From IMG/VR virus record IMGVR_UViG_3300009093_000042, positions 1 through 64,000 of that record: a stretch of DNA of 64,000 bases; one strand, written 5' to 3'. Below, one piece after another: positions 2,925 to 42,578 of the stretch. The DNA comes from a virus. Taxonomy: Duplodnaviria > Heunggongvirae > Uroviricota > Caudoviricetes. Numbering within the stretch: position 1 is the stretch's first letter; the number at the start of each line of letters is the position of its first letter. A program made the position numbers and the translations under genes. The notes below the pieces were generated by a model. The model was not told the origin of the DNA. It made no database searches and saw nothing but the letters and a program-made list of their open reading frames with translations.

Positions 2925-3304
2925 GCTACTTCGAGATCAAATAGTGTAACGGCAAATCTGCTTATGGCGTAATTGATATTCCGGTCGATCACGAGGAGGC
3001 GCTTGGCCACCGGGTGATGCCCGTTTATGTGAACTCTGTTTTGGTCGTCCAACTCCATCGCGAGTTCGTATCCCATCTCGCGAGCTTTTTCCATGCACCG
3101 GAGCCACACCATCTGGGAGGCAATCGGGTTGGCAGTCGGATAAAAAAGTTTTACGTGTTGAAATTTCCAGCCGCTGTCAACGCGGCTGTACCAGTCGTCA
3201 TTCCACAAGGTCCAGCCCATGACCTTTTCAGCAATCACTTTGTCCATTTTTCGATTAGGGCTGTCTTCCACAGGCTTGCTAAAATCTAAGGTCAAAACTG
3301 GCAT
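2921..3304 (-). CDS. hypothetical protein (trimmed; ORF-track start at 3343 is TTG inside the promoter motif)
   Basis: Codon at 3343 is TTG lying within the TTGTTTACAA motif. First ATG is at 3304 (MPVLTLDF...). Confidence 0.45.
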   Translation of the reverse strand: MPVLTLDFSKPVEDSPNRKMDKVIAEKVMGWTLWNDDWYSRVDSGWKFQHVKLFYPTANPIASQMVWLRCMEKAREMGYELAMELDDQNRVHINGHHPVAKRLLVIDRNINYAISRFAVTLFDLEVA

Positions 3305-3330: not shown

Positions 3331-3348
3331 AAATTGTAAACAATTTTT
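3331..3348 (-). promoter_or_regulatory. conserved palindromic promoter-like element
   Basis: AAATTGTAAACAATTTTT. It overlaps the TAA stop of the upstream gene. Confidence 0.5.
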
Positions 3349-7335: not shown

Positions 7336-7354
7336 AAAATTGTAAACATTTTTT
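7336..7354 (-). promoter_or_regulatory. conserved palindromic promoter-like element
   Basis: AAAATTGTAAACATTTTTT, between the terminator of 7412..8431 and gene 6986..7309. Confidence 0.5.
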
Positions 7355-8981: not shown

Positions 8982-10187
8982 TTATTTGAGGACGGGTGCC
9001 GGAGTGGTTGCCGGAGTAACCGCAGGCGTGGTCTTGACGCCGACCATCATCTGTTCGACGGAGTCCATGAAGCTGGACGTGAGCAGGTTCACTTTCATGT
9101 CCTGCGGCAGCCAGCCCTTCACGCCCGAGAACGCGGGTGCGACCTGCTTGGCGATCTCGATGCGGGCGAACACGTCGGCACCGGCCACGGCGTAGGATTC
9201 GAGCTTCAGCTTGTTGGCTTGGGCTTCGGCTTCACCACGGGCGAGAATACCCTTGGATTCGGCGATGTCGGCATCACGTTTGCCTTCGGCTTCCAGCACG
9301 CGTTTCTGCTGCTCGGCTTTGGCGGCGATGATTGCCTTTTCGTTGTCGGCTTCCGCTTTCAAGATGGTGACCTGCTTGTCCCGGTCAGCCCCCACGATCT
9401 GGGTGTTGGCGTCGGCCTGGGCTTTGGCTTTGGCCACCAGCGCTTCTGCTTCAGCGGCCTTCTGCTCCTCCACGGCGCGCAACTGGCGCTGCACCGCGAC
9501 CTGTTTGCCTTTGATTTCCTCGATGTATTTCGGGTCCAGGGCAATGTGCTCGACCACGAAATTTTCCACGATGATGCCGCGCTGAGGCAGCTCCGCGCTG
9601 GCCTGGTCCTGGCCTTTGCCTTGCAGCGCGTTCTGGATGTTCTGCTGGAGCGTCACGAGGCCGGAGCCGGAGTAGGCGTCAAGAGCTTTCATCTTGGTGG
9701 CTTCGTCTTTGACGACGCGCATCACGACCGGGCGAATCAGCTTTTCCTCAATGTCCGTGCGGACGGTTTTGTGGATGCTGACCAGGTTGGTCGGATTCAG
9801 CCGCCAGCGGATGTTCATCGAGATCGTCATGTCTTGGCCCTCCTGGGACTGCACCAGGTAGGCGTCAGTGGCGCGGCCTTCGCCCTTTTCTTCAGGCGTG
9901 GTGTTGTTATTCATCACGAAGATGCGCGAGGAGGCGTCGTACGTGATGATCTTCTGGCTCCAGGCAGGGATCAGAACTTGCAGGCCGGGCTGATAGACTT
10001 TGTCTTCGACGCCGTCGTGCCAGGTTTCCTTGATGCCGAGTTCATTGCCTTTGATCATCTTGTAGTTCACGCACTGCAAAAGCAGGAACATTACGATGAT
10101 GACGGCGATAGCGCCGCCGATTAGTTTTCGTGGATTCATATTGGATTCTTCTGTTTTTGGTTTGGTGGTCCTTCGTCGTGCTGTCAT
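8982..10187 (-). CDS. SPFH/band-7 (stomatin/prohibitin/HflK-like) membrane protein
   Basis: N-terminal TM anchor, then a band-7-like core (IRPVVMRVVKDEATK...GIIVENFVVEHIALDP) and an Ala/Glu/Lys-rich coiled-coil tail. ATGA coupling to the upstream small membrane gene. Confidence 0.65.
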   Translation of the reverse strand: MTARRRTTKPKTEESNMNPRKLIGGAIAVIIVMFLLLQCVNYKMIKGNELGIKETWHDGVEDKVYQPGLQVLIPAWSQKIITYDASSRIFVMNNNTTPEEKGEGRATDAYLVQSQEGQDMTISMNIRWRLNPTNLVSIHKTVRTDIEEKLIRPVVMRVVKDEATKMKALDAYSGSGLVTLQQNIQNALQGKGQDQASAELPQRGIIVENFVVEHIALDPKYIEEIKGKQVAVQRQLRAVEEQKAAEAEALVAKAKAQADANTQIVGADRDKQVTILKAEADNEKAIIAAKAEQQKRVLEAEGKRDADIAESKGILARGEAEAQANKLKLESYAVAGADVFARIEIAKQVAPAFSGVKGWLPQDMKVNLLTSSFMDSVEQMMVGVKTTPAVTPATTPAPVLK

Positions 10188-10408
10188 AGCCGTTTCCAGA
10201 GAACGGAAAGCGTGGCGTAAATGAGGTAGCCGATGAAAATAAAGGTCACGAAGGGAAGCGCCACCCGCACTTCAGCTTCTCTTTCGATCACCATTACGAG
10301 AAACAACGCCACCCAGATCACGCCAATGATCGCCAGGATTTTAATGTGGCGTTTGAATTTTGGATCGGTTTCCTTGGGAGCGCCGTTTTTAGAGGGTTCT
10401 TTGGCCAT
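10184..10408 (-). CDS. small two-TM membrane protein, putative SPFH partner (NfeD-like role)
   Basis: 74 aa with two hydrophobic helices. Translationally coupled (ATGA) to the SPFH gene. Promoter motif upstream. Confidence 0.5.
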   Translation of the reverse strand: MAKEPSKNGAPKETDPKFKRHIKILAIIGVIWVALFLVMVIEREAEVRVALPFVTFIFIGYLIYATLSVLWKRL

Positions 10409-10429: not shown

Positions 10430-10470
10430 TTAATGTAAACAAAAGGACTTTAGCGCGGACAGCGCTGTCG
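10430..10470 (-). promoter_or_regulatory. promoter-like element plus small hairpin upstream of the SPFH operon
   Basis: AATGTAAACAAAAGG, then an AGCGCggacaGCGCT hairpin. Confidence 0.4.
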
Positions 10471-10908: not shown

Positions 10909-10926
10909 GAAAATGTAAACAATTTA
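10909..10926 (-). promoter_or_regulatory. conserved palindromic promoter-like element
   Basis: AAAATGTAAACAATTTAC in the intergenic region between 10948..11244 and 10496..10852. Confidence 0.45.
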
Positions 10927-12703: not shown

Positions 12704-12734
12704 GGCGGCCCTGAGTGGGGCCGCCATTTTTATT
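12704..12734. terminator. GC hairpin plus T-run oriented on the plus strand inside a minus-strand gene array
   Basis: GGCGGCCC-tgagtg-GGGCCGCC followed by ATTTTTATT. May act bidirectionally or on antisense transcripts. Confidence 0.4.
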
Positions 12735-12960
12735 GCTCTCGCATCAAAGTTTCTACGCGTTCCATGAATTTGGCTTCGTTGGCGGCAGCTTCCATGTGAT
12801 CACGCCGGGTGAAAAAATCCATGCCGAAAATCTGGGTCATCGCTGATTTATCCGAACCCTCTCCTTCCAGGGATTCACGTTTGGCTTTCCAGTAGGCGTA
12901 GTCCTCGCGGGCCTTCCTGAGCTGGCGGGCTTTGAGCCATTTGACGAATCTTTCGATCAT
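12730..12960 (-). CDS. hypothetical small protein
   Basis: ATG at 12960 lies 8 nt downstream of a TTGACA-N16-TACATT promoter. Confidence 0.45.
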   Translation of the reverse strand: MIERFVKWLKARQLRKAREDYAYWKAKRESLEGEGSDKSAMTQIFGMDFFTRRDHMEAAANEAKFMERVETLMREQ

Positions 12961-12995
12961 GTGAAAAATGTAAACAATTTATTGTTGGTGTCAAT
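12961..12995 (-). promoter_or_regulatory. sigma70-like promoter with -35 TTGACA
   Basis: Minus strand TTGACA-N16-TACATT-TTTCAC-ATG. The core is AAATTGTTTACATTTTTCAC. Confidence 0.55.
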
Positions 12996-13000
12996 GCCTA

Positions 13001-13786
13001 TCAATCACGTTCAGCTCTTTCGTGATCATCCATCGCCCGATCCACCACGTAGCCCATCATCTCGTGCTCTTTGTCCATGTCCGCCTGGATGGTGTTGCGC
13101 AGGTGCTCGCGAAACTCCAGCGGGTTCATCGGGAGTTTGAGCTGCATCACCACGCTGATCGGTAGCAGCCGGGTGATCTCCCGGTGATACGACATCAGAT
13201 TGCTGTATTTTCGGTCGAGCCACTTGTCATAATGACGGATCGGCCAGAGTGCTTGCTCAGCTTCACGCCGCGATTTGAAAAAGTCTGCCAGCCAGAAAAG
13301 GATGCCATCTGAACCTTGCTCCATGTCCCAGTAGTAGAGAATTCCCCACGCGTGCGACCGTGGATTGTACGCCGGTTCGACGAACTCACAGCTTCCCCGG
13401 CTGCCATAATCCGGCTCCTGGCGCGCATACTCCTGGCAGGCGAGGCAGGTCTGGTGATAGCTGCGAGAGCCGAAATAGGCATCCATTTTCCTGATGCCGC
13501 AGCACATGCAGATGGCATCCAGTTCCAGGGGCTTTTTGGCCGCGTGAAAGAGGGCCAGGCGCAGGCACTGCTGATCCACCCAGTGCTCGTGCTCACGAAT
13601 GTCAGCTTCCACTAGCGGCTCGTAAGCCTTCAGCTTTTCCAAGGCACTCGCCTTCGTAATGACGCCCGAAGTCACGTCGCTGCGGATTTTATCCCAGTCG
13701 GTGGCGATGGGTTCGCGGTCAAAAAAGATGTCGGCCCTGATCTTATTCTCATCCAGCAGTTGAATATCAGTAGTCATCTTCGACAC
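13001..13786 (-). CDS. hypothetical protein (261 aa), Cys-containing
   Basis: Long ORF. Confidence 0.55.
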   Translation of the reverse strand: MSKMTTDIQLLDENKIRADIFFDREPIATDWDKIRSDVTSGVITKASALEKLKAYEPLVEADIREHEHWVDQQCLRLALFHAAKKPLELDAICMCCGIRKMDAYFGSRSYHQTCLACQEYARQEPDYGSRGSCEFVEPAYNPRSHAWGILYYWDMEQGSDGILFWLADFFKSRREAEQALWPIRHYDKWLDRKYSNLMSYHREITRLLPISVVMQLKLPMNPLEFREHLRNTIQADMDKEHEMMGYVVDRAMDDHERAERD

Positions 13787-15638
13787 CTTTCCATTCGACG
13801 AACGTGAAATTTTTCTTCTCCATGAAAGCCTTCAGCACGGCTTTATAGTTGACCATGAGCGGGACCGCCCACTGGTACTTCGACTTCCAATCCCGGTCGT
13901 CCAGAATCTCCTCCGACAGCGACGGCGGGAGCGGCATTCGCATGAAGTCTGAGTTTTTCAACACGAGCTTGATCGGCTCCTTTCGGCGCTGGCGGCTTCC
14001 CCAATCTGCTCCTGCGGCGCGGCGCTTCATCCAGGGGTAATAATTCACGACCGGCTTGCCGTCCTCGATGCTGAGCACTTCGAAGATGATGGGCTTTGAA
14101 TCCTTGTAGGTCGTACCGTTGCTGAAGGACGTAGGACCGGCGACCCATTCGTCCACGTAGGCCACGATCCAGTCTCCCCGGTGCGCTTTGCCATCCATGT
14201 AAGGTTCGATCTTCTTCGAAACGCCGTGCCACGGCAGCGCCTGGCGGTAGTCGTAGATGAGGTTGAAATACTTATCCACGTTCTCCCAGTTGAACAGATC
14301 GGTGCCCCTGGGAATGTTCAGCAGCTCGGTGTTATCGACGATGCCCTGGAGCAGCACAGCGAAAATCATCTGCTTCTTATTCACTTTGGTCAGATAATCT
14401 TGCACGGCCTGCCTGAGCTGTTTGTCCAGCAATTCCGGGTAGGAGGAACTGTCGAGCCACTTTTCAATAGTGGCGAAGCGCTCATGCACGATCTGGCGCG
14501 TGAAGTAAGGCTCCTCCTCTTTCAGTGGGCCATGCTTCAGTTCACCCATCACGTCGTCCTCGGCTTTGTCGCCGATGGTCTTCTCCCGTTTTTCCTTGAT
14601 GGCAAAGGAGCTTTCCCAGACGTGATTCTGGACCACGCGCACGGTACGATCGAACTGTTCCCGATCCGGGAACACCGCGTTTTGGAAGGTAAATTCCACG
14701 TCCACGTGGAATACGTTCTCGCCGTCGCGCACCCAGATCATGTTCTGCATGTTCAACATGTTGTTGTACAGATTCACGAAGGCGTCGCGCCCGTAGTCCT
14801 TGTCCTCTTTGCGAATGCGCGTCGCCAGGATGCAGCGTTCGAAAGGCAGGAATTTCCAAATCCGGCCTGACTTCACGAGCCACTTCTCCAGGGCCTCCAT
14901 GTTTTTGAAATCGAAGTCCTTGAAGTTGGCCAGGAGCGCGATCTCCTCGGACAGGTAAACCCTGTTTTGAAAGACTGCGTACTTGCCGGTGCCTTTGTTG
15001 CCCGAACAAATCTGTGTGCGATGACGCGTGCCGTGAAGGTAAGCGTCCAGGATGCTGAGCTTCTGCTTCATGTCCCGGACTTTTGCGCTGAGGTCCCCGC
15101 TCAGGCGCGACATCTCCCACTTCCGGCGCATCAGGCCCATCTGTTCGGCCTGGATTTCCATCTGCATGTCATGCCTGCGCGCCTGGAAATCCACCAGGCT
15201 CGCGCCCATCGGGCTGAGCACCACGTCGGTCGTCTCGTTCGTATTGGCCGGGGCTGCGATCTGCTTGTGCTCGGGATGAAGGTACTTGTTGATGTCAGTG
15301 ACTTTGATCTCCAGGTGCAGCCCAAAGTCCCGACCGTTTCCATTGTGCAGGCCGCCCTCCGCGTAGTGGCGATTCAGGAGTTTGCGTGTGCGCGCAACGA
15401 CTTCTGGCTCGTCGCTCCAGACCTGGATGACTTCGTAAGCTGAGACACCAGGGAGACTGACGGTGTCCAGGAAGAACTTTCTGCCGACCGGCTCAGCCGG
15501 AAAGGCCATCGCACCGAAAATGATCTTGAGGGCGTCCTCAACATTCTGGGCGGTAGCGTGCCAGTCGCCGTTGCCGTCGCGCTCTTTGTGGGAATTTTCG
15601 TACGGATTGACTCCGATGACGTACAGAAAAGCCTTCAT
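13767..15638 (-). CDS. large hypothetical protein (623 aa)
   Basis: Long uninterrupted ORF. No recognisable catalytic motif by eye. Confidence 0.6.
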   Translation of the reverse strand: MKAFLYVIGVNPYENSHKERDGNGDWHATAQNVEDALKIIFGAMAFPAEPVGRKFFLDTVSLPGVSAYEVIQVWSDEPEVVARTRKLLNRHYAEGGLHNGNGRDFGLHLEIKVTDINKYLHPEHKQIAAPANTNETTDVVLSPMGASLVDFQARRHDMQMEIQAEQMGLMRRKWEMSRLSGDLSAKVRDMKQKLSILDAYLHGTRHRTQICSGNKGTGKYAVFQNRVYLSEEIALLANFKDFDFKNMEALEKWLVKSGRIWKFLPFERCILATRIRKEDKDYGRDAFVNLYNNMLNMQNMIWVRDGENVFHVDVEFTFQNAVFPDREQFDRTVRVVQNHVWESSFAIKEKREKTIGDKAEDDVMGELKHGPLKEEEPYFTRQIVHERFATIEKWLDSSSYPELLDKQLRQAVQDYLTKVNKKQMIFAVLLQGIVDNTELLNIPRGTDLFNWENVDKYFNLIYDYRQALPWHGVSKKIEPYMDGKAHRGDWIVAYVDEWVAGPTSFSNGTTYKDSKPIIFEVLSIEDGKPVVNYYPWMKRRAAGADWGSRQRRKEPIKLVLKNSDFMRMPLPPSLSEEILDDRDWKSKYQWAVPLMVNYKAVLKAFMEKKNFTFVEWKGVEDDY

Positions 15639-16066
15639 TCCTTTTCTCCCTTGATCACCGAGTCATTGAATTCGTTCGTCGTCAGCGCACCTTTGGCAAG
15701 CTGCACCAGGAGCGACTTGCCGCGCTCAATGCCTGCTTCGTGCGACAGTTGGATCGCCTCCTGGATGGCCTTAAAGAGATCGTTGAGCGCCTGGCGTTGT
15801 TCCGGCGTGGCAATGCGGATGGCCGCGTCCAAGCCGCGTGGGTAAAAGGTCCCGTAATCCGGGACGATGGGACTCACGTCACGTTCAGCGTTGGCTGAAA
15901 GCGTGCGCTTATCCACCTGGGGGAACATCAGCTCGATGATGCGGTAGTAGGCCGCCGTCGCTTTCGGGTAAAGCGTGCCGTCGCCAGAGATAAACCTGGG
16001 ACGGAAGTGCGCCTGGGCAACCCAGAAGGAGTTTTCAGGAGCTTTTGGTTTGCGACGAGTGCCCAT
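15635..16066 (-). CDS. hypothetical protein (143 aa)
   Basis: ATGA coupling with the downstream gene. Promoter motif upstream. Confidence 0.5.
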   Translation of the reverse strand: MGTRRKPKAPENSFWVAQAHFRPRFISGDGTLYPKATAAYYRIIELMFPQVDKRTLSANAERDVSPIVPDYGTFYPRGLDAAIRIATPEQRQALNDLFKAIQEAIQLSHEAGIERGKSLLVQLAKGALTTNEFNDSVIKGEKE

Positions 16067-16070
16067 AATC

Positions 16071-16087
16071 GAAAATGTTTACAAATT
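16071..16087 (-). promoter_or_regulatory. conserved palindromic promoter-like element
   Basis: GAAAATGTTTACAAATT, 4 nt upstream of the ATG of 15635..16066. Confidence 0.45.
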
Positions 16088-16100
16088 CTGTCAGACTCAA

Positions 16101-16616
16101 TCAATGAAAATATCCGATATTAGAAATTCTCCTGCCGCCTTTCGGGGTGCGCCCGAAACGACTGAGGAATTCGAACTTGATGCTGTCTGACTCTGCCCTG
16201 TCCATCTCTGGCGTGGATCGGCTGCCGAGTGCTTCGAACACGGCGCACTGCGCCTGCATGTCTCGCACTTCGTCCCGGCCATCCACCTGAAATTTATCAG
16301 AAGGTTTCTGCGCGTAGCACTTGGGATCAGAGCAACCGGAGCTGAAGAAGTATTCGAAAGCCACGAGGAACGATGTCGCGCTGAGATCAGTCAGGTTCTC
16401 GACAAATTCCAGGAAGCAGGCTGCGTGCTCCGGGCTGTAATCCTTTTTGATGCCGTCATGGATCATCTCCAGGTGGGTTGGACCGAGGTCGCCGCGCTTG
16501 GGTCCCCGCCCGGCGTAATAGCCAGAGCGCGCCAGCAACCGGCCAGAGCACCAGGCGTCAATGGCTTCGTAAAAGCTGGCCGGTGGATTCGTGGGTTTGG
16601 GTAGTTCTTTTTTCAT
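16101..16616 (-). CDS. hypothetical protein (171 aa)
   Basis: Minus ORF. Confidence 0.5.
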   Translation of the reverse strand: MKKELPKPTNPPASFYEAIDAWCSGRLLARSGYYAGRGPKRGDLGPTHLEMIHDGIKKDYSPEHAACFLEFVENLTDLSATSFLVAFEYFFSSGCSDPKCYAQKPSDKFQVDGRDEVRDMQAQCAVFEALGSRSTPEMDRAESDSIKFEFLSRFGRTPKGGRRISNIGYFH

Positions 16617-16837
16617 TATGGGTATTGGGTGAGGGAGTCCCAGGTCGGCAGGTTATACTGCGCGTCCGCGCTGAGACGTTTGTTTTCTTCTTTCCGCCAC
16701 GCGATTTCATGGTAGTAGCACGCGTGACAAATAATCAGATTGCCGTGGTGCGGATTCTTGCCGAGGGGCAGAACTCGCACTTCGCCGGTCGCGCTTTGGC
16801 AATGAGACCCGTCGCAGTTGGGATTCAGGTTTGCCAT
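16616..16837 (-). CDS. Cys/His-rich zinc-finger-like small protein (trimmed)
   Basis: CDGSHCQ...CHACYYHE pattern. TGAtATG junction with the upstream GHKL gene. Confidence 0.4.
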   Translation of the reverse strand: MANLNPNCDGSHCQSATGEVRVLPLGKNPHHGNLIICHACYYHEIAWRKEENKRLSADAQYNLPTWDSLTQYP

Positions 16838-16838
16838 A

Positions 16839-18299
16839 TCACAGCTTTCGGTCGCGGATCGCCTGGGCCAGTTTGGAACCAATCATGGTCAGTGCCTTGT
16901 AGTACTCCTCGCTCAGGTGATTCTCGCTGTACTCGTGGCCGAACTCGTGGATGATCAGGTCATCAATTTCCTGCTGGTTCGTCTCACGATTGAACCAGTC
17001 GTAGCCGAGCCGACCGACGTTGAACACCAGGGTCCCGCTCGGGCCGTAAGTGGCACCGTAGGGCCAGGTTGCTTCCGCCGCAAAGACCACGCTGATACTT
17101 TTGCCGAGCACGATCCGGGCGAACGCTTTGGCGTAAGTTTCCACGTGCTGCATCCCGACCGTTACTTCCTTGACCAGCTTCAATGGCGCGCCGTCCGGGC
17201 TGTAGGGCTTGGGTGAAGGCGTGACCTGACCGGCAGGCAGCATCGCGCCCACGCTCTTGACGTTACTCCAGGCGGCCTTGCTGAGCTGATTGCCGGTGAC
17301 CACCGTGAAGCCAGCGGCAGCGGCACGGCTGTTGGATTCGATGTCGGACGGATCGTAGATGACGCGTTTCTCACCGAAGCGCTGAGTCATGCACGCCTCG
17401 ACCGCTGCGGGTGCGATGTCCGGTGAAGTCAAAGCTTCAGCGGCCCAGGACGTGTTGGCATCCTCGCTGTCGATGATTGTTGACATGTTATTCACAGCGG
17501 CTACTGCGAGCTGTTTTCGGAAGGAAGGCAGGACTTCTTCACGGTCCATCGTGAGCGGAACTTTCTGACCCACGTTGAAGATGTATTTGCCGTCGATCTC
17601 GCACACGGGTATCCCCATCTCGTAGATGGCAGCCGGGCAGCCTTCGCCGGGAACAGCGCGGTAAACTTCCACATTCGTCAGCCGGGTGGTTTTGACCATG
17701 TTGCCTTCACCGTCAGCGACCTCAGTGGCCAGGGCAGCTTTGAATCGCGTCATGCCCGGCGCACTGACGAGGGCTTTGCCGTTGATAGTCGTGATGATGG
17801 TCTTTTCGCCAACCGGAGGAATCAGCCGAGCGCAGGCATTTACAATCTGGTCGATCTCGTCCTTTTTCACGCGAATCATCATTGAGATCACCGAACCCTT
17901 TTCCCGCTTCAATCCTGGCGACCGTTGCCTGCCGTGTTTGGTAAAATTGACGGTGCCGGTGGTTGTGGAGACGCAGGCTTCTGAAGCGAGGGCCAGCACC
18001 AGCTTCTCGCCGAGGTTGAACCGACCGCGCTTTTCCGGGTTGGCCTTTTTCTTGGACTCAGCGAACAAGGTGTAGGCGTGCGTGAGGTCAGAGAATCCAT
18101 CCGGCGCATCGTCCGTCACACGCAGCATCGCCTGGCCAGGATACCCCGGCACCGACTCAAGCGTGACATCGACCTGAGTGACGCCTTCTTCGTCCCAGGC
18201 ATTCTGGATCAGTTCAAAGATAATGAACTCCTTGCCCTTGCGCTGGAGGATTTTCGCCAGCCCGTCTTTGTCTATTTCAAACCATGATGAAGTTTTCAT
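16839..18299 (-). CDS. GHKL (Bergerat-fold) ATPase fused to a C-terminal HExxH zincin-like motif
   Basis: N-box FELIQNAWDE, G1-like VTDDAPDGF, G2-like RGRFNLGEK, then IIHEFGHEYSENH near the C-terminus. ORF-track start 18317 is TTG inside the promoter. First ATG at 18299 sits 7 nt from a TACAAT -10 box. Confidence 0.6.
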   Translation of the reverse strand: MKTSSWFEIDKDGLAKILQRKGKEFIIFELIQNAWDEEGVTQVDVTLESVPGYPGQAMLRVTDDAPDGFSDLTHAYTLFAESKKKANPEKRGRFNLGEKLVLALASEACVSTTTGTVNFTKHGRQRSPGLKREKGSVISMMIRVKKDEIDQIVNACARLIPPVGEKTIITTINGKALVSAPGMTRFKAALATEVADGEGNMVKTTRLTNVEVYRAVPGEGCPAAIYEMGIPVCEIDGKYIFNVGQKVPLTMDREEVLPSFRKQLAVAAVNNMSTIIDSEDANTSWAAEALTSPDIAPAAVEACMTQRFGEKRVIYDPSDIESNSRAAAAGFTVVTGNQLSKAAWSNVKSVGAMLPAGQVTPSPKPYSPDGAPLKLVKEVTVGMQHVETYAKAFARIVLGKSISVVFAAEATWPYGATYGPSGTLVFNVGRLGYDWFNRETNQQEIDDLIIHEFGHEYSENHLSEEYYKALTMIGSKLAQAIRDRKL

Positions 18300-18349
18300 A
18301 CTCAGGATTGTAAACAATTACAGTCCAATGTCAATACACAAAGTGTATT
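18300..18349 (-). promoter_or_regulatory. promoter with -35 TTGACA, -10 TACAAT, near-leaderless start, plus upstream ATACAC-AAA-GTGTAT palindrome
   Basis: Minus strand CACTTTGTGTATTGACA-N16-TACAAT-CCTGAGT-ATG. Perfect 6-bp inverted repeat at 18335-18349. Confidence 0.55.
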
Positions 18350-18360
18350 TATTTTACCCT

Positions 18361-18699
18361 TTATTTAATAGGCTTTAATGCGTCATCGTGCGATTTGACT
18401 AGGCGCTTTAGTTTCAAGCTGAAGGGCGTATCACCGGAGCGTAGAGGCGGTAATTCCTCTGTCGTTTTCCTGTTCCTGGCCAGCGCCACGGCGGTCTTAA
18501 ATGGGTTGGGCAGCTTGAATCCGCCCACCCGGTTCAAGTGGACCCAGATCGCGGCCCAGTAGCCGAACATCTGGAACTTGTAGCGGGCCAGGGCGTCCCA
18601 GGCTTTCTTCTCCGCTTCTTCCAGGTCGGCTCGAAGGCGCGCCTCGATGTCGGTTACAGCGCTGCCACTTCGAATCTGCTTTTTTGTATCGGTTTCCAT
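18361..18699 (-). CDS. hypothetical protein (trimmed to internal ATG)
   Basis: The full ORF overlaps the UDG-like gene by 163 nt. An internal start reduces the overlap. Confidence 0.3.
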   Translation of the reverse strand: METDTKKQIRSGSAVTDIEARLRADLEEAEKKAWDALARYKFQMFGYWAAIWVHLNRVGGFKLPNPFKTAVALARNRKTTEELPPLRSGDTPFSLKLKRLVKSHDDALKPIK

Positions 18700-19103
18700 A
18701 CGATTGTTTTTCGGTCCTGGTATCCGGGCACCAGGAGCTTTTTGAATTCCATGTAGAGGTTGTTGCTGACACCGCGTGCAGCCGGGTGCGGCACTGACAG
18801 CATGGGTCCGCTCCATATCCAGGCCAGGGCGTTCTCGGCCTGCTTGCCGCAGGTGATCACGATCTCGGGGGCGCGCTCGGCCAGGACGTTGAGGATGTGC
18901 CCGTTGTCCGGCGCTACGACGCTGTTGGGAGCCTCGCCCACTATGGGGGTGGTGTTCTCGCAGATGGACAGGTCATCCACCAGGTAAATCAGGCGCTGAC
19001 CGGAGCGAGATCGGGCCAGAGCGCGCAGCCAGGACTCACGCGGCCAGCGGCGTCCGGCATAGACCGGCGACCAGGCGTTCTGGAGGAAGACTACGGCTTT
19101 CAT
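18654..19103 (-). CDS. uracil-DNA glycosylase superfamily protein (family 4-like)
   Basis: GEAPN (motif A-like) and HPAARG (motif B-like). Start trimmed to MKAVVFLQNAW, which gives ATGA coupling with 19100..19621. Confidence 0.45.
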   Translation of the reverse strand: MKAVVFLQNAWSPVYAGRRWPRESWLRALARSRSGQRLIYLVDDLSICENTTPIVGEAPNSVVAPDNGHILNVLAERAPEIVITCGKQAENALAWIWSGPMLSVPHPAARGVSNNLYMEFKKLLVPGYQDRKTIVWKPIQKSRFEVAAL

Positions 19104-19621
19104 ATCGCTTCTTTCGCTAGAACCAGCTCCACTTTCTCGACGCCGATTTTGCGTTGATCTCTCCACCAGCTTTCACGCCCCCAGTTGATGGCTAGGAGCT
19201 GCGCTTTCGCGGGGTCGTTGGCATACACTCCAATGCTGACTTTGGGAGCGGAGTCGCCCCACAGCGTGACATGATAGTCAAACGCACCGGACCCGATATG
19301 AAGCAGGTCGCGGCGTTCGGCTTCCTCCGCTGTGATCGTCGGGAAATCGGTAGGCGCTGGAATTGTGCTCCAGGACTGTGAGGTCGGGAGCGACTTGATT
19401 CCCTGCGGGCGCTTCCGACTGCAATACTTTCCATCCTTGGCGACCATTTTACCGGAGAGCAGATCAATCACGACGCCTTTGAATTTAGCCGTGTATTCGC
19501 ACGCTGATTTTATATCAAAGTGCCGGTCGCGGGCGACCCAGTGATTGAATCGTCCGATCCAGGAGAAGACGAGATAGTTGCAGGGGCGTTTGTCGGTGAT
19601 GGTTTGGGTGATAGTGTTCAT
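19100..19621 (-). CDS. hypothetical protein (173 aa)
   Basis: Minus ORF coupled to both neighbours. Confidence 0.5.
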   Translation of the reverse strand: MNTITQTITDKRPCNYLVFSWIGRFNHWVARDRHFDIKSACEYTAKFKGVVIDLLSGKMVAKDGKYCSRKRPQGIKSLPTSQSWSTIPAPTDFPTITAEEAERRDLLHIGSGAFDYHVTLWGDSAPKVSIGVYANDPAKAQLLAINWGRESWWRDQRKIGVEKVELVLAKEAI

Positions 19622-20622
19622 TATGCTGGCGGGTTGAAGTTTTCGTAAACAAATCGTTCAGTGTCGTCCACAGATAGTCCGGCTGCGGTAGCTGCTTTCC
19701 AGAGAGCCGAGCTGCGTTGGTCTTCTGCGCTGATGTCGCGGCGTTCGCGGAGACCTGGATTGGCTGCGAAGATCGCTTCCCATCTGGCAACGTCTTCGGG
19801 GTTGTGCTTCGTAATGGTGAATTTGGCCGGGCGTTTCCAGAAGCCGAATAGCTCGTCGTTTTTGCTTGGCTCGAACGTGGCGGTAAATTCCACTTCATCA
19901 CCCTTGCGCGGGAACATCACCTGGCCAGCGGCGTTGTATTCAGGAGCATTGCCGAAGGCGCGCACACCGTTGCCGAAGTCGATGGTGAGCTTGGTGACCA
20001 TTTTCCGAGGATCGAAGCCAGGAATAGTTTTGGTGGACAGGACAGTGCCTTTGACTGTGTGGCGGCCACTGAGAGCTTTGCCGGTCGCGGAGGCACGGCG
20101 CGCTTCGTCTTTTTCGCGGATGCTTTCGAGGGTGGTGATCTGCTTCTCGGACAGCTCACCGAAACGGCGCATCTTTTCCAGCATGTCCTTGGCGATCTTG
20201 GGAGCACGGGCCAGGCGGCACCAGCCGATGATGCTCATCGCCTCGGGGTGCGCGGTCAAGAAATCAGCTTCGCGCTTATTGCAAGCCAGGCGCTCGGCGA
20301 GGGCCACAGTGTGCTGTGCGATCATTCTGTCGAACCGGCGCAGATTTTCCACCTTGGCGGCACAGTCACGGCCAACCCAGTAGCCGGTGCCCGTGGGCGC
20401 GTGGACAATGGCGCAGGCGTACTTGAGAGTGTGGCCGCAACAGCCGCAGCGATTGGGTTGGTTTTGAGCTTTGAAAGTCTGCCAGAGCGGTTCGTCGATG
20501 ACATCCATCTCAGCCTCGACTGATCCATTTTCTCCTGCGTCCGGGTTGAAGCCGAGGACCACGCAGACAGCAACGAGCCGGAGTTCGTTCACCGGCAGTC
20601 CTTTAATAGATTCGTTTGTCAT
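19621..20622 (-). CDS. hypothetical protein (333 aa)
   Basis: Leaderless-type promoter (TTGACA-N16-TACATT-N6-ATG) upstream. Confidence 0.55.
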   Translation of the reverse strand: MTNESIKGLPVNELRLVAVCVVLGFNPDAGENGSVEAEMDVIDEPLWQTFKAQNQPNRCGCCGHTLKYACAIVHAPTGTGYWVGRDCAAKVENLRRFDRMIAQHTVALAERLACNKREADFLTAHPEAMSIIGWCRLARAPKIAKDMLEKMRRFGELSEKQITTLESIREKDEARRASATGKALSGRHTVKGTVLSTKTIPGFDPRKMVTKLTIDFGNGVRAFGNAPEYNAAGQVMFPRKGDEVEFTATFEPSKNDELFGFWKRPAKFTITKHNPEDVARWEAIFAANPGLRERRDISAEDQRSSALWKAATAAGLSVDDTERFVYENFNPPA

Positions 20623-20675
20623 GCCAGAAATGTAAACGAAATAGAATTGTTGTCAATACCCAAAGTGTAAATAGT
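20623..20675 (-). promoter_or_regulatory. promoter with -35 TTGACA, -10 TACATT, near-leaderless start
   Basis: Minus strand CACTTTGGGTATTGACA-N16-TACATT-TCTGGC-ATG. Shares GTATTGACA upstream context with the promoter at 18300-18349. Confidence 0.55.
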
Positions 20676-20782: not shown

Positions 20783-20793
20783 TTGGAGTGCGT

Positions 20794-20988
20794 ATGAAAT
20801 TTCGCTTAATAGCAGCACCGGTTGAGCGAGGGGACCTAAACAGGATTTTCTCTCTGTTCGAAGTCGCGCAATTCCTCGAAATAGCTGTTGAAGACCTGGC
20901 CCTGCGCGGAAAACTCTCGGGAAACGTCAGCCTGGATGGCTATACTTTCGAGGTTGTTCGCAGCGTGCAGGGTTCAAGTTTCAAATAG
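20794..20988 (+). CDS. hypothetical small protein (plus strand)
   Basis: GGAG sits 5 nt upstream of the ATG. Preceded by a strong GC hairpin. Convergent with the HerA-like gene. Confidence 0.25.
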   Translation: MKFRLIAAPVERGDLNRIFSLFEVAQFLEIAVEDLALRGKLSGNVSLDGYTFEVVRSVQGSSFK

Positions 20989-22734
20989 CGTTGCGCTGGC
21001 TCGGATTCTCAGCTCGCGATCCTGTTCCATCAGGTCGGGAGCGCGCAGGGCTGTTAGCGCGTTTCCAAACGTGCTGGAGTTCACGCTGTATCCCGTCGCG
21101 TCTGAAATCTCCTGGCGCGTGGCAAACTCCGGGAAGCGCGTCAGCAGGTAACTGAAAATCTTTCCCGCTGCGCCGCTCAGCTTATTCACCCAGAGATTTC
21201 TCAGAGCTTCACCTTTTGGCAACGGTTCAAAGTTTTTCAACAGGGCGCGAGCCTCGGGTATTGCAGTCAGCGTGTCGCCGCTGCGGATGATCGCGTTGTT
21301 TTTGGAAAGCTCGGTCAGCCCGTTGCCGAACGTGCTTGAAGTCACGCTGTAGCCGGATAGAAGCGCGGCCTGGCTGCGGGTCCGCCCTTCGGGATAACTG
21401 AGCAGCACGGTCAGAATCGCTGACGCACACTTGGAAAGTCCACCCGAGGATGGATCATGCACCGGCGATGAAAAATCGTGCCGAGTGGCGACAACTGGAG
21501 CCGGGATCGCCTTGGGTGCTACCGGTGTCGCAACCGCCATACTCGTCTTCTGGATCACGATCAATTTGTTTACAATATCGGTGCGTAGCGCTACCGCCTG
21601 ATTGGCCAGCTCAGAGAAGTTCACCACCGTCTTGCTGAAAGTAGTGCAGGCTTCCTCGATTCGCTTCAGAGTTTTTTCCTGCTCGGGCGTTAGCACGGGA
21701 ACTTCGACCTTTTCGATTCGCGTGTCCACGACCGTCACCGGCCTGGGCGCGACAGCGGCCTGTTCCGCTTTTACCAGCTTTTGTTTCAAAACAGCCACTT
21801 GTTGTTTCAAATGGGCCGGATCATTCTCGTTGGCGCGCTCAATCGTTTCACGAATCTCATTTCCCAGGCGCACGAGATCGACCTTGGCCAGCTTTTGCGG
21901 GATGATGACTTTTTCACCTGCCTTGGGCGTGGCTGATGAGTTGAAGGTCCGGCGCTGCCGGATGGTGATCCGTTGAAAGATGCGCAGCCAGCCGGGCGAC
22001 CATATCCAGCCCTCGCCGGTGTGAAGCGATGCCAGGGACTGCATCATGATGTCGCGCTGTTCCTTCGTGCCGTTGCGCTTCACCCAATCGTCGATGGCGT
22101 CCTGGTCCTGGGGCGAGTTGAGCTGAAGTACGATCAACAGTTCGGTCTGAGTGAAGACATTCTTATTGAGCACAGCCGGGCGCTGCGTGATCAGCGTCGT
22201 GCCAATCCCACGGATGCCTCCCCGGCGCACCAGGGCTTCGAAGGCTCCGAGCATTCGCTGCTGGCCGTCCTGGGGTTTCTGGGGAGCGAAAGAGTCGGCT
22301 TCGTCCACGAACAGGTGCAGCGGATTGCGGTTTTGATTTTTACGCCGGTAGAGGCGTTCGGCAAAGTCAGTGGCGAAGCGATCCTGCTGTGCGTTGCTTT
22401 CGGTCGAGGAGAGGTCGATGACGTAGTAGCCAGGATGGTCAACCACCATGTCGGCGATGACCCGGCCTGCCGTATATTCCAGTGGAACGTCCGCGTGCTC
22501 ACCGCCGATGATCACCACTGGCAAACCTTCGCGCAGACCGTTTGCTGATGAACGCAGGCCCCACCAGGCACCGGTCGGATCGAGCACGGCAAACGGCTGT
22601 GACGCCGCCACCAGCTCCTCGGCGATCACCGATCCTGTGTAGGTCTTACCGACCCGGCGCATGGCCATGATGGAACACGTCTGGGTGACGAAATCCAACG
22701 GCAGCGTCAGTTCCTTTGAGATTTTGAGGCTCAT
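20974..22734 (-). CDS. HerA/FtsK-superfamily P-loop NTPase (DUF87-like) with tandem C-terminal winged-helix-like repeats
   Basis: Walker A MAMRRVGKTY, AVLDPTGAWWGL, Walker B LHLFVDEADSF, and GIRGIGTTLITQRP. Two C-terminal repeats GYSV(T/N)SSTFGN(G/A)LT. Confidence 0.6.
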   Translation of the reverse strand: MSLKISKELTLPLDFVTQTCSIMAMRRVGKTYTGSVIAEELVAASQPFAVLDPTGAWWGLRSSANGLREGLPVVIIGGEHADVPLEYTAGRVIADMVVDHPGYYVIDLSSTESNAQQDRFATDFAERLYRRKNQNRNPLHLFVDEADSFAPQKPQDGQQRMLGAFEALVRRGGIRGIGTTLITQRPAVLNKNVFTQTELLIVLQLNSPQDQDAIDDWVKRNGTKEQRDIMMQSLASLHTGEGWIWSPGWLRIFQRITIRQRRTFNSSATPKAGEKVIIPQKLAKVDLVRLGNEIRETIERANENDPAHLKQQVAVLKQKLVKAEQAAVAPRPVTVVDTRIEKVEVPVLTPEQEKTLKRIEEACTTFSKTVVNFSELANQAVALRTDIVNKLIVIQKTSMAVATPVAPKAIPAPVVATRHDFSSPVHDPSSGGLSKCASAILTVLLSYPEGRTRSQAALLSGYSVTSSTFGNGLTELSKNNAIIRSGDTLTAIPEARALLKNFEPLPKGEALRNLWVNKLSGAAGKIFSYLLTRFPEFATRQEISDATGYSVNSSTFGNALTALRAPDLMEQDRELRIRASATLFET

Positions 22735-25127: not shown

Positions 25128-25188
25128 TGAGTGAAAAATGTAAACAATTTTTTGCTTACGTCAACGACGAAGTTCGTTCTTTAAGGAT
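25128..25188. promoter_or_regulatory. divergent intergenic region with a single palindromic motif serving the minus lipoprotein gene and the plus gene 25189..25449
   Basis: GAAAAATGTAAACAATTTTTT. Minus strand reads TTGACG-N16-TACATT-TTTCACTCA-ATG. The plus gene has an AAGGA SD. Confidence 0.5.
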
Positions 25189-25449
25189 ATGGCACTGAAT
25201 AAAGCACAAAAGTTTACGAAAACATCGTTCAAGGCGCAGGCGGATGCGATTGGAAATATCCTCCGTACCAATACCCTCCTGAGCGATGAGGAGAAGGCGT
25301 CCCTGAATGAAACGTTTGGCGTTCTGACCTGGATGAACCAGTACCAGTTGCACCAGGAAGCAGGCAACAAGGACATCCCGGAAAATATCCGGGCGCAGAT
25401 TTTCGATGGTCGCCCCGGCGTGAAGCCGGTGCCTCCGACCGTCGATTAA
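25189..25449 (+). CDS. hypothetical protein (plus strand, 86 aa)
   Basis: AAGGA SD sits 4 nt before the ATG. It shares a 61-nt divergent intergenic region with one palindromic promoter motif. The minus-strand ORFs overlapping it are antisense. Confidence 0.5.
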   Translation: MALNKAQKFTKTSFKAQADAIGNILRTNTLLSDEEKASLNETFGVLTWMNQYQLHQEAGNKDIPENIRAQIFDGRPGVKPVPPTVD

Positions 25450-25824: not shown

Positions 25825-26517
25825 CTACGCGAACTGCACGACGGCGATGTCGCTGATCTTGAAAACCGGATTCGTATGGTTCCAGTTGATGTTCAGGTGA
25901 TCGAGCACGCCATAGGTGCTTTCTCGCATAATTCCCCAGTCATTTAATGGGGTAAAGCTGTGGCCTGCCAACGAGGCTATTTCATTCACCACTTGGGCGT
26001 CAAAAGTGGCCTTATCAACATCAGTGCAGGCGGTGTCGGTATTTCTGAAAAGCTGGATGTGCCAGTCAGGATTGCCTTTGATGATGTCCACGAAGAACAG
26101 TGTGCGGTTAGCATCTGTTGCTCCGATGTTCCACGTGCTCGGCTCCAAATCTCCGCCGCCGCCCGTTCCGGCCAGTAGAACACCGTTCCCCCATTCTTCA
26201 GCCGCTCCAAAGGAACAGCCGTAGCGTGTCGGCCCGGTGGCCCGAACGAACGTGTTGAAATTGCCCACCATGTTTGCTCCAAAAAAGTGCGTCGGAGCTA
26301 AGCCGGAATCACCAAAGATGCTGGTATCTCCGGTGCAGATGCCTACGTGAAGACTGCACGAACTTACATCTGCGCCCGAGTCAGCCATGCACAAGCGCAT
26401 TCCGATCCGCAGCTTTTGCCACGTGCTGTTGAGCATGAAAAACGGCTGGCGAGCGAACCGACTGGCATCAAGAATGAGCCGATTCTCGCCGCTAATGCTG
26501 GAAATGATGGCGGACAT
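25825..26517 (-). CDS. virion-associated protein, tandem paralog A
   Basis: About 60% identical to 26521..27207 (MSAIISS.GENRLILD.SRFARQPFFM ... KISD.AVVQ.A). Confidence 0.55.
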   Translation of the reverse strand: MSAIISSISGENRLILDASRFARQPFFMLNSTWQKLRIGMRLCMADSGADVSSCSLHVGICTGDTSIFGDSGLAPTHFFGANMVGNFNTFVRATGPTRYGCSFGAAEEWGNGVLLAGTGGGGDLEPSTWNIGATDANRTLFFVDIIKGNPDWHIQLFRNTDTACTDVDKATFDAQVVNEIASLAGHSFTPLNDWGIMRESTYGVLDHLNINWNHTNPVFKISDIAVVQFA

Positions 26518-35917: not shown

Positions 35918-37986
35918 GTGACTTTGAAGGTTTTGATGCGTTCGTAGCCGGGCGGCAGGTTAATTTCGACGGGCGGTTTTTCCAGGATAATAGATTCGAA
36001 CTCGCGGTTGAGATGCACGCGAGGGTTGTTCGACGCCATCATCGTCGCCTTTTCCTCAGAATTGATGGCGTTGTAATAAGAACCAGCGCAGGCGTCGGTC
36101 GTGTCTTTGCTGCCCTTGTCCGGGTGATCCACCTTTTTGTCGCCATCGAGCAGCTTTTCCGCTTCCTGCATCATGTGCCGGTGAGCGTAGGGGCGCAGGC
36201 GGTGTTCTTCAATGGCCATTCTCCAGGCGATGTACGCGTCTTTATTGCGGTCCACGCTCTGCTTGTCCACTTTGAACCCACGCGCTTCAAGCATCTGGAG
36301 CTGTTGATCGCTCTGGTATTGATCGTACGTGATCAGGCCAAAGTTGTAGCCACATTCGTCGCGCAACCAGATCAGGAAATTCTGGACCTTTTCCAGCGAT
36401 ATGGGCTTTACCTGACCGGCGATGACCGTGAGGATGAAATCGTATTCCACGATCAGTCGATACTCGGAATAGGGCATCACGTCGCCGGGCCGGATGGTGT
36501 TCTCGATGAGCTGCGTCCCTACCAGATGAGAGATGGCGATACCGGCCATGCTGGTGGTCGCCAAGTCGATGTGTGCGTAGCGAAGCTGGCCGGGGTGGCG
36601 CTTGGGCATCGTCTGGGAGGCGATGCGGTGGCAGAAGGCGCGGTGCTCCAGGTAATGCCAGAGCTGCTTGGTGTCCTCGGTCGAGAGCGGTAGGAGTTCC
36701 ATTCCGTTTTCGCCCTTTTCCACTGGGTTTACGACGCCGTCCTTTTCGGCCAACTCCACGCACATTTCAAAATCGACCATGGACGCAAACCAGCGGTTGG
36801 TGCCTCCGGTTGAGATTCCGCACACATCCCGCAAGGCGTTTAGCGGTCGTCGCTTGAACTCATCCAGGTACATGACTGGCACCAATTCAACAGACGCGCC
36901 ACGCGGCGGGTCTTCCCACGGGCCTTCACCGATCTGTTTGGCATCCTCGTTGTAGTATCCCTTGAGGATCATCGGGATCATGTTCTTGAGGCCGTAGCTG
37001 ACCTTGAACCATTTCGGACCAAGCTGAAGGGTGTGCCGCTTAATTTTGTAAACAGAATTGCGATAGACCTTCTGGCAAGAGGGATCGTTCGCTTTGTTGA
37101 TTTCGGTGATGACGGTTTCCGTGAAGGAGGACTCGTCCTTCGCCGACGATGCCAGGATCGAGATCGCGGGCAGGTAACCGGCGACCTTACGAAAGCGGTT
37201 ATTGATACGATTGCGGACTTCGTTGAAAAGCTCGTATGCCTTGTTGTCCGGCTCCGCTTCCAAGCGCCAGTTACCTTCGTCCAGTCCGACGCCGATGATG
37301 TTACGACCGAGCAAGTGCTGGCCCCGCGAACCTGCGGTCAAGATGATAGACCCTTTCAGCGGGATGCGAAATCCGCTGTACTGCGAATCAGGGTTGTACT
37401 TGCACTGTTCCAGAAAGTACGGCGAGTTGGCCATGAAATTCATGGCATCACCAAATGCTGTTTCAGTCACGGCGGCCTTCGTGACAGACAGAAGGTTGAA
37501 AATGATCTTGGTGCCTTTGGTGAGGCCGAAGAAATTGTGCGGGTTGCGCAGCAGCGTGGCGATCAGCACCCGGTAAAGGAGGATGGTCACCATGATGAAC
37601 GTTTTGCCGATACCCAGTGATCCAGTGATGACGCAGTTGTGGATGGCACTGTCGTAATTGAAATCGCGGCAAAGGATTTCTTTCCAGGCCGGGAACATGC
37701 CTTCGCTGTCCTGGCTCTTGGTCATCAGGCTCCCGAGATAGTACGGGTCGTCGAGGAACTGCTGCATGGTGGGAGGAATCTCAGTGTAGTCCACCATCTT
37801 GAGCTGGTCATTGATCTCCGACTTGCCGGACGCCCGATACTGATTGAGCATGTCTTCCCACACCTGACGTGCGTACGGCGACAATGACGAAAGCATCGGG
37901 TCAATGTTTTCCCCCTCAAGTCCGCGAGAGAGAATATCTTCCAACGTTTCCGTCAACGTTTTTTTGTTTACATTTACTTCAGGCAT
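35914..37986 (-). CDS. terL: terminase large subunit
   Basis: Walker A GSLGIGKT and Walker B IIGVGLDEGNW in the N-terminal half. RNaseH-like nuclease half (YAHIDLATTSMAGIA ... YDFILTV). 690 aa. Confidence 0.65.
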   Translation of the reverse strand: MPEVNVNKKTLTETLEDILSRGLEGENIDPMLSSLSPYARQVWEDMLNQYRASGKSEINDQLKMVDYTEIPPTMQQFLDDPYYLGSLMTKSQDSEGMFPAWKEILCRDFNYDSAIHNCVITGSLGIGKTFIMVTILLYRVLIATLLRNPHNFFGLTKGTKIIFNLLSVTKAAVTETAFGDAMNFMANSPYFLEQCKYNPDSQYSGFRIPLKGSIILTAGSRGQHLLGRNIIGVGLDEGNWRLEAEPDNKAYELFNEVRNRINNRFRKVAGYLPAISILASSAKDESSFTETVITEINKANDPSCQKVYRNSVYKIKRHTLQLGPKWFKVSYGLKNMIPMILKGYYNEDAKQIGEGPWEDPPRGASVELVPVMYLDEFKRRPLNALRDVCGISTGGTNRWFASMVDFEMCVELAEKDGVVNPVEKGENGMELLPLSTEDTKQLWHYLEHRAFCHRIASQTMPKRHPGQLRYAHIDLATTSMAGIAISHLVGTQLIENTIRPGDVMPYSEYRLIVEYDFILTVIAGQVKPISLEKVQNFLIWLRDECGYNFGLITYDQYQSDQQLQMLEARGFKVDKQSVDRNKDAYIAWRMAIEEHRLRPYAHRHMMQEAEKLLDGDKKVDHPDKGSKDTTDACAGSYYNAINSEEKATMMASNNPRVHLNREFESIILEKPPVEINLPPGYERIKTFKVT

Positions 37987-41591: not shown

Positions 41592-41604
41592 AAATGTTTA
41601 CAAA
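41592..41604 (-). promoter_or_regulatory. promoter-like motif filling the 13-nt gap between stop and start
   Basis: Minus strand TAA-TTTGTAAACATTT-ATG. Confidence 0.4.
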
Positions 41605-41916: not shown

Positions 41917-41947
41917 CGTAGATAGATACTGAACAGCAAAACAACCT

Positions 41948-42550: not shown

Positions 42551-42578
42551 TTAGTCTGCCCAAACCGGGCTAACAACT

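Follow-up and report, generated by a model that had tools for sequence, protein, structure and literature searches.

Conserved, probable sigma70-type promoters set close to start codons in a jumbo phage genome free of Shine–Dalgarno signals: likely sources of leaderless and near-leaderless mRNAs

In the phages lambda (promoter PRM, gene cI), P2 (gene V) and 434 (cI), transcription from a sigma70-type promoter starts at the A of the ATG, and the mRNA has no 5' untranslated region and no Shine–Dalgarno (SD) sequence (Shean & Gottesman 1992, as cited in PMC12340547). The sites that we describe here, and term ‘class I’, are built in the same manner. They lie in a 64,000-nucleotide (nt) stretch of tailed-phage DNA, positions 1 to 64,000 of IMG/VR record IMGVR_UViG_3300009093_000042 (‘the window’), and are conserved and probably strong promoters of the sigma70 type that make leaderless or near-leaderless mRNAs. 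Such mRNAs are frequent in Deinococcus-Thermus and Actinobacteria (PMC12340547). Leaderless genes of Deinococcus-Thermus carry a -10 element, invariant at T1, A2 and T6, about 6–7 bp upstream of the open reading frame (ORF), an arrangement with experimental support in which the addition of a -35 element raises output (PMC12340547). In phiYS40, a large phage of Thermus thermophilus, many transcripts of middle and late genes are leaderless and others are leadered (PMC3594737). Bacteroidota, the genomes of which are SD-poor, use sigmaA promoters of another kind, with TTTG at -33 and TAnnTTTG at -7 (PMC9723704). In F. psychrophilum only ~5.5% of mRNAs are leaderless; none was detected in phiKZ, and the leaders of AR9 are long. 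Early promoters of T4, those of T5, and the A1–A3 promoters of T7 combine near-consensus hexamers with conserved flanks, and capture the host polymerase.

The window belongs to a contig of 245,196 bp from a metagenome, which was located by way of a gene for a HerA/DUF87-like ATPase (20974-22734); the length of the contig makes this a jumbo phage. A first-pass annotation of the window had pointed to four places on the minus strand at which TTGAC(A/G), a 16-nt spacer, TACATT or TACAAT, and a further 6–9 nt are followed by ATG. All four are present:

12967..12994, minus strand: class I promoter site 1, TTGACA-ccaacaataaattgtt-TACATT-tttcac-ATG; spacer 16 nt, gap 6 nt, ATG at 12960
18307..18334, minus strand: class I promoter site 2, TTGACA-ttggactgtaattgtt-TACAAT-cctgagt-ATG; spacer 16 nt, gap 7 nt, ATG at 18299
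20629..20656, minus strand: class I promoter site 3, TTGACA-acaattctatttcgtt-TACATT-tctggc-ATG; spacer 16 nt, gap 6 nt, ATG at 20622
25137..25164, minus strand: class I promoter site 4, TTGACG-taagcaaaaaattgtt-TACATT-tttcactca-ATG; spacer 16 nt, gap 9 nt, ATG at 25127

The pattern TTGAC-N17-TACAWT matches exactly four times in the 64 kb, both strands considered, and these matches are sites 1–4, all on the minus strand. Dinucleotide shuffles contain 0.02 matches on average, and never four; when two mismatches are allowed, the additional matches are at chance level only. In a scan of 8–27 kb with the generic sigma70 consensus, sites 1–4 are the top four, and in the window as a whole sites 1–3 are the sole coding-strand matches to 10 or more of the 12 consensus positions. 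No SD motif lies between promoter and start codon at any of the four sites, and there is no room for one.

To compare the sites, related syntenic contigs were chosen by the identity of their ATPase homologue: 81% for L005/L006, 80% for L008, 70% for L004, 57% for L007 and 55% for L016. These five related contigs and the window (W) make up a comparative set of six genomes, in which we find 15 class I sites. Contigs of this group are carried by the samples ERZ27252312, SRR14194042, SRR29078200, SRR29078148 and JGI 3300068082. Each consists of TTGAC[A/G], a spacer of 16 nt (10 sites) or 17 nt (five sites), TAC[A/G/T][A/T]T, a gap of 6–10 nt, and ATG (in one case GTG), and all are intergenic, on the coding strand of the downstream gene or operon. 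The -35 hexamer is TTGAC[A/G] in 15/15. The -10 hexamer is TACATT, TACAAT, TACGTT or TACTAT in 15/15, with A2 and T6 always kept. When the 15 sites are aligned, the only invariant columns are those of TTGAC and GTTTAC..T; the 5' part of the spacer and the short stretch ahead of the start codon vary freely. The gaps between -10 hexamer and start codon are as follows:

Site 1: 6, 6 and 6 nt in W, L004 and L016
Site 2: 7, 7 and 7 nt in W, L005 and L016
Site 3: 6, 6, 10, 7 and 9 nt in W, L005/L006, L004, L007 and L016
Site 4: 9, 9, 10 and 10 nt in W, L005, L008 and L016

The orthologues of site 1 read TTGACG-16-TACGTT-6-ATG in L004 and TTGACG-17-TACATT-6-ATG in L016, and the single GTG start, with its gap of 10 nt, belongs to site 4 in L016. 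At site 3, the promoter and its closeness to a start codon are kept even though L005, L007 and L016 have another gene downstream. The promoter of site 2 is missing in L004 and L007; there, the orthologous gene is operon-internal and adjoins its neighbour without a gap. Chance matches to TTGACR-N12/13-YGTTTACAWTT in unrelated viral contigs provide a control: an ATG occurs 5–10 nt after the hexamer in 10/119 of them (8%), compared with a start codon close behind the -10 hexamer in 15/15 sites of the clade. Scans of IMG/VR for a 19-mer and for the two-block pattern returned chance-level matches, one per contig, which served as negative control only. The hexamers, the 16–17 nt spacing and the 6–10 nt gap being kept in five relatives, the canonical -35/-10 reading of the first-pass annotation, and the near-leaderless geometry that it described, appear sound.

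Promoters of the sigma70 type usually start transcription at base 7 or 8 past the -10 hexamer (about 7 nt, range 6–9), and the favoured start context is Y(-1)R(+1). Because the start codons lie 6–10 nt past the -10, and transcription normally starts ~7 nt past it, leaderless or near-leaderless mRNAs are to be expected. We suggest that class I promoters—TTGAC[A/G] at -35, a spacer of 16–17 nt, and TAC[A/G/T][A/T]T at -10 behind an invariant (Y)GTT—would be read by holoenzyme containing a group-1 sigma factor. At gaps of 6–7 nt, the transcript would begin at the A of the ATG, and be leaderless; at gaps of 9–10 nt, it would begin 1–4 nt before the start codon. The 5'-terminal AUG would presumably be bound directly by ribosomes, without an upstream ribosome-binding sequence. 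The base ahead of the start ATG is C or T in 9/9 of the sites with a 6–7 nt gap, as expected if transcription began at the A of the ATG in a Y(-1)R(+1) context. Firing in vivo, the exact position of the start, the polymerase and sigma factor that read the sites, and the way in which the mRNAs are translated, are what we infer from these sequences.

This reading depends upon the start codons, and those annotated for the four genes are, as far as sequence can show, the true ones. The genes, and a conserved divergent gene beside site 4, are:

12730..12960, minus strand: 76-aa gene of site 1; N-terminus kept in L004; GC-rich hairpin 12704-12725 behind the gene
16839..18299, minus strand: 486-aa gene of site 2; N-terminus MKTSSWFEIDKDGLAKILQR; ELIQNAWDE motif
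19621..20622, minus strand: 333-aa gene of site 3; synonymous changes in IKGLPV; an alternative GTG is GTA in L004
24831..25127, minus strand: 98-aa predicted lipoprotein gene of site 4; MKLVKMVIFLSLLCGC...; signal peptide and lipobox kept in orthologues
25189..25449, plus strand: conserved divergent 86-aa gene beside site 4; helical model, no fold or family match

The N-termini of orthologues align from residue 1 at the genes served, and independent gene calls stored with the source contigs give identical starts. The start of the site-2 gene, MK..WFxIDK, is also used in L004 and L007, where no promoter lies ahead of it. The precursor of the site-4 lipoprotein requires the first ATG for the n-region of its signal peptide. 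No in-frame ATG or GTG was found upstream of the four starts, and the single upstream in-frame TTG, at site 2, falls within the -10 region. Downstream, one alternative start alone has an SD-like motif, the GTG at codon 11 of the site-3 gene; this codon is GTA in L004, and the codons before it (IKGLPV) differ between L004 and the window by synonymous changes only. The orthologous N-termini, the signal peptide and the change of GTG to GTA speak against the case that the first-pass annotation had named against itself, namely that the starts are really downstream internal ATGs with conventional ribosome-binding sites.

Some further features of these genes deserve mention. The 486-aa protein encoded behind site 2 has neither a Pfam nor a PHROG match at E<=1e-3; its string FELIQNAWDEEG is similar to the N-box (ExxxNxxD) of GHKL/Bergerat-fold ATPases. 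The hairpin at 12704-12725, just past the site-1 gene, has 9 bp, eight of them G-C pairs, with a T-run on the plus-strand side only; on the minus strand, an A-run lies upstream. The hairpin could mark the end of a short site-1 transcript, or be a stop for antisense transcription. An uncalled plus-strand ORF (~20788-20988, ~62-66 aa) lies between the ATPase gene and site 3, in a gap of 351 nt; it has GGAG 5 nt ahead of its ATG, and a hairpin (GGCCCTC...GAGGGCC) is nearby.

The first-pass annotation had set the four leaderless starts against other genes of the window that carry GGAG or AAGGA ribosome-binding sites. A few genes do carry such motifs. As a signal they do not hold up, since the SD 4-mers GGAG, GAGG and AGGA occur at -20 to -4 of 7/66 window genes (10.6%) versus 10.5% of random same-strand positions. 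Ahead of the source-called genes of close relatives they occur in 2/27, 1/15 and 0/9 cases; L007 is the only relative with some excess (8/25, versus a background of 15%). In the 30 nt ahead of each of 142 starts, the 5-mers in greatest excess derive from the promoter core (e.g. ACATT, 21 versus 3.3 expected), and no SD word is enriched. G is depleted at -15 to -4 of starts (0.13-0.23 versus 0.27). These figures leave no contrast between leaderless and SD-led genes. Since SD 4-mers are no commoner than at random positions and starts are preceded by few G residues, the bulk of the genome relies upon SD-independent initiation, on leadered or internal cistrons, and the host probably belongs to an SD-poor lineage. 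At L007:12726, the operon-internal orthologue of the site-2 gene has a canonical AGGAGGG 5 nt ahead of its ATG.

Other strings recur ahead of start codons. Leaders in the window, L004, L005 and L008 are A/C-rich, with recurring strings resembling CCTAACTAACC. Upstream of 172 genes, the motif (TTYS)GTTCT occurs 20 times, and in 12 cases its end lies 7–8 nt ahead of the start codon. It is found at the minus-strand starts 22734, 56695, 8431 and 58542, at the plus-strand starts 25189 and 60405, and at L004:10001, L008:6342, L016:6376 and L007:9756. It is kept before the HerA-like ATPase gene in several relatives, and a GT[TT/AA]AC core is often present 6–7 nt upstream of it. This motif could mark where short-leader transcripts begin (their +1 region), or be a signal that substitutes for SD. 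For a second motif, (G)TAGTTA, six of 12 occurrences end 4 nt ahead of the start codon, and GTAGTTA occurs six times in the window versus 1.2 expected. It lies at the minus-strand starts 25817, 35376, 51989 and 55448, and also at L004:1920, L007:7967 and L007:19293. TAGTTA holds stop codons in two frames (TAG and TAA), and may couple termination to reinitiation in an SD-free genome.

The -10 hexamer of the class I sites is embedded in a longer element, (A)A(T)T[T/C]GTTTACAWT(T). The first-pass annotation placed the -10 inside a conserved palindromic element and this is borne out, the longer element (A)ATTGTTTACAWTT being a dyad except for its central TT. In the core YGTTTACAWT, G occurs at -15 in place of the canonical TG at -15/-14. 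In the dyad AATTGT-TT-ACAATT, the pairs G-15/C-10 and T-14/A-11 are invariant, and the outer positions on the left are only partly kept. On the window's coding strand there are 14 copies of the 9-mer GT[TT/AA]AC[A/G][A/T]T, 12 of them within 60 nt upstream of a start. Some of these copies, which we term ‘class II’, have no -35 and are preceded by A/T-rich sequence. Class II copies and other copies of the core are:

10912..10920, minus strand: class II core GTTTACATT; no TTGACA -35; next start codon 59 nt downstream
10432..10440, minus strand: class II core GTTTACATT; no -35; start codon 23 nt downstream (gene 10184-10408)
7339..7347, minus strand: class II core GTTTACAAT; no -35; directly behind a terminator-like hairpin with a T-run
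3333..3341, minus strand: class II core GTTTACAAT; no -35; ATG 28 nt downstream (gene 2921-3304)
16074..16082, minus strand: flipped core GTAAACATT; 7 nt ahead of the ATG of a 143-aa gene, 15635-16066
37966..37974, plus strand: core GTTTACATT; upstream of plus-strand gene 38029-38592
41596..41604, plus strand: core variant GTTTACAAA; heads plus-strand gene block 41708-43334

The start codon lies 20–59 nt downstream of the class II copies (cores starting at 10920, 10440, 7347 and 3341), versus 6–10 nt for all copies that bear TTGACR. Because class II copies without a -35 precede their genes by 20–59 nt, the core promoter family is therefore not intrinsically leaderless; within the clade, leaderlessness goes with the subclass that bears a -35. 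In all five genomes concerned (the window, L004, L005, L007 and L016), the flipped core precedes the 143-aa gene by 5–11 nt, its orientation kept. Read on the plus strand, it is a perfect forward core, ATGTTTACAAT, in four relatives, and ATGTTTACAAA, without the final T, in the window. The plus-strand copies of the core precede the few plus-strand genes. A perfect forward-type core, AATTTGTTTACAAT, is also present antisense in the ATPase gene at 21566-21576 (plus strand), and is kept at L005:11110 (minus) and L008:7520 (minus); this core may be there only because the peptide IVNKLIV is conserved, and need not be an antisense promoter.

Two of the class I sites have an additional box adjoining the -35:

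18335..18349, minus strand: upstream box AATACACTTTGTGTA; adjoins the -35 of site 2; consensus TTTRCACTTTnnnTA
20657..20672, minus strand: upstream box ATTTACACTTTGGGTA; adjoins the -35 of site 3

Every orthologue of sites 2 and 3 has the box TTTRCACTTTnnnTA, and so has a related IMG/VR contig, L072. The core, its flipped copies and the box exceed what a plain sigma70 promoter needs, and leave room for an operator or for a phage factor.

An operator is possible, although we would not favour it, and it is compatible with these sites being promoters. The dyad AATTGT-TT-ACAATT over the -10 would be the binding site of a dimeric DNA-binding protein, from phage or host, that switches the promoters, and the upstream box a second protein site or an UP-like element. 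The stretch from -19 to -13 (AAT[T/C]GTT) is indeed kept well beyond the needs of a spacer, and mirrors ACAWTT, but the left half of the dyad is less conserved than the right. The element is found upstream of genes in both orientations, with only the central TT/AA flipped; such flipped copies are, however, equally readable as forward-type promoters of the opposite strand. Conservation of the box at all orthologues of sites 2 and 3 also speaks for an operator; against it, no candidate DNA-binding protein was found among the proteins of the window. The divergent 86-aa gene beside site 4 was tried as a regulator and rejected: its product has a mediocre helical model with a predicted local distance difference test (pLDDT) score of 69, and it matched no Pfam family and, at E < 1, no fold. 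An operator of the LacI/GalR type (TGTAAAC-GTTTACA) was rejected likewise, the half-sites here not being so arranged.

A reading in which a phage-encoded factor—a sigma factor, a sigma-appropriator or activator, or a phage RNA polymerase—takes the place of unmodified host holoenzyme at (T)YGTTTACAWT(T) is less probable, and we consider it unlikely. The TTGACA sites would then be a subclass, usable for instance by host enzyme plus phage factor, with the factor setting the timing; this elaboration, too, we doubt. The core is near-invariant over 9–12 bp in both classes, and in relatives down to 55% ATPase identity. Class II copies, with no -35 and only A/T-rich sequence upstream, resemble -35-independent phage late promoters, of which the T4 late promoter (TATAAATA), read with gp55, is an example; and genes for a T4-type portal and gp25 are present in a more distant syntenic relative. 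There are only four consensus sigma70 promoters for ~70 genes, and other signals must therefore exist. What tells against such a factor is, first, that TTGAC[AG] stands at the canonical distance of 16–17 nt in 15/15 class I sites, which is the signature of sigma regions 4.2 and 2.4. Second, no sigma factor, RNA polymerase, helix–turn–helix (HTH) or other DNA-binding family was detected among the ~70 proteins of the window, which is about a quarter of the 245-kb genome. On a broader and similarly doubtful version, the clade may run on largely non-canonical signals, with YGTTTACAWT read or gated by a phage factor (and leaderless where it has a -35), and with the GTTCT and TAGTTA motifs as alternative initiation or reinitiation signals. 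GTTTACA was also considered as a -35 similar to those of T4 early promoters, with the -10 inside the gene, and discarded, since no consistent -10 was seen by eye ~17 nt downstream.

It is very improbable that the elements are not promoters at all, the genes being translated from long read-through transcripts with the conserved U/A-rich stretch as an SD-independent translation enhancer in the RNA, for although the genome lacks SD signals, has A/U-rich and G-poor upstream regions, and has nearly all genes co-oriented in long arrays, this leaves unexplained the invariant TTGAC 16–17 nt upstream of TACAWT, the class II copy directly behind a terminator-like hairpin, the plus-strand copies that head plus-strand genes, and the fact that the entire element is gone in relatives with an operon-internal site-2 gene.

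The interpretation that we prefer, of sigma70-type promoters that make leaderless or near-leaderless mRNAs, has points against it as well. The positions of its transcription starts are extrapolated from rules of the E. coli type, which may not be those of the host. The dyad-like core of 9–12 bp is longer than a sigma70 -10 needs, and is also present without a -35, which hints at an extra or a different reader. Gaps of 9–10 nt, at site 4 and at some orthologues of site 3, favour a leader of 1–4 nt over an AUG at the very 5' end. The four genes could also be expressed as internal cistrons, by read-through from operons upstream. And L072, an IMG/VR match on a contig of 238,436 bp, which is as long as the contig that yielded L135 and probably stems from that more distant relative, has a class I-like promoter with the upstream box, and then an apparent leader of ~60 nt.

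The phage itself has a GC content of 55%, and almost all genes of the window are on the minus strand, in long co-oriented arrays. Proteins of the window match PHROG families for tail fibre, baseplate wedge, tail tube, Hoc-like decoration protein and endonuclease VII; these matches identify it as a tailed phage. DNA comparison with deposited phages gave no near match to the window, protein searches with the ATPase and a helicase gave remote matches only, and no relative of the ATPase was confirmed in IMG/VR. Rfam and transfer RNA scans had no matches. A scan of a genome collection for the host returned only small or unrelated contigs of metagenome-assembled genomes (MAGs; Omnitrophota, 36% GC, and others), unusable for host assignment. 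The HerA/DUF87-like P-loop ATPase (20974-22734, minus strand) has two C-terminal repeats that resemble winged-helix domains. It has ~2000 homologues, on contigs of up to 250 kb and in one Nitrospira MAG, and its own sole phage annotation is a weak one, as terminase large subunit (phrog_2666). Two adjacent genes of ~230 aa each (25825-26517 and 26521-27207, minus strand) are paralogous, with near-identical C-terminal ends (...VFKISD(I/L)AVVQ(F/L)A).

If the four sites are what they appear to be, they provide a phylogenetically supported set of leaderless and near-leaderless operon heads in an uncultured jumbo phage without SD signals. They would help to correct the annotation of start codons in the clade, offer a compact promoter signature, TTGACR-N13/14-GTTTACAWT, by which to find transcription units in relatives, and hint that the host initiates translation without SD pairing.

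How far, then, do the class I sites resemble what has been described before? Bacteroidota likewise combine SD-poor genomes with a promoter layout that is similar at first sight: the genome here is SD-free, and TTG-N19-TAnnTTT resembles the -33/-7 arrangement, with the -7 box at -12 to -5. A Bacteroidota sigmaA promoter was tried on account of this fit, and rejected. G occurs at -5 in 0/15 sites, the -33 region reads TTGACR and not TTTG, and the base before TTGAC is A, G or C. Closer in design are the T4 early, T5 and T7 A1–A3 promoters, which share with class I the near-consensus -35 and -10 and the extra conserved flanking positions; unlike the class I sites, they drive leadered, SD-containing mRNAs. 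The geometry of sites 1–3 is that of Deinococcus-Thermus. There, it is host-genome-wide and the element is a degenerate TAnnnT, whereas here YGTTTACAWT is near-invariant, in a phage of 55% GC.

The first-pass annotation had thought two modes of translation initiation within one phage notable. Leaderless genes alongside leadered ones are already documented, for example in phiYS40 (PMC3594737), which resembles the present phage in having both modes in one large genome. Promoters of the lambda PRM–cI kind serve single regulatory genes; here, at least four operon-leading promoters share an extended core, and are conserved across a clade in an SD-free genome. The leaderless promoters of phiYS40 reportedly lack a -35, and its host phylum is said to be rich in leaderless genes; in the present phage, by contrast, the near-leaderless sites are those with a consensus -35. 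No new principle is involved, since leaderless genes beside leadered ones are documented in lambda, in phiYS40 and in whole bacterial phyla. The present case works like the lambda, phiYS40 and Deinococcus-Thermus precedents, and differs from them in being a conserved family with a consensus -35 and a long dyad-like core, in the SD-free genome of a jumbo phage.

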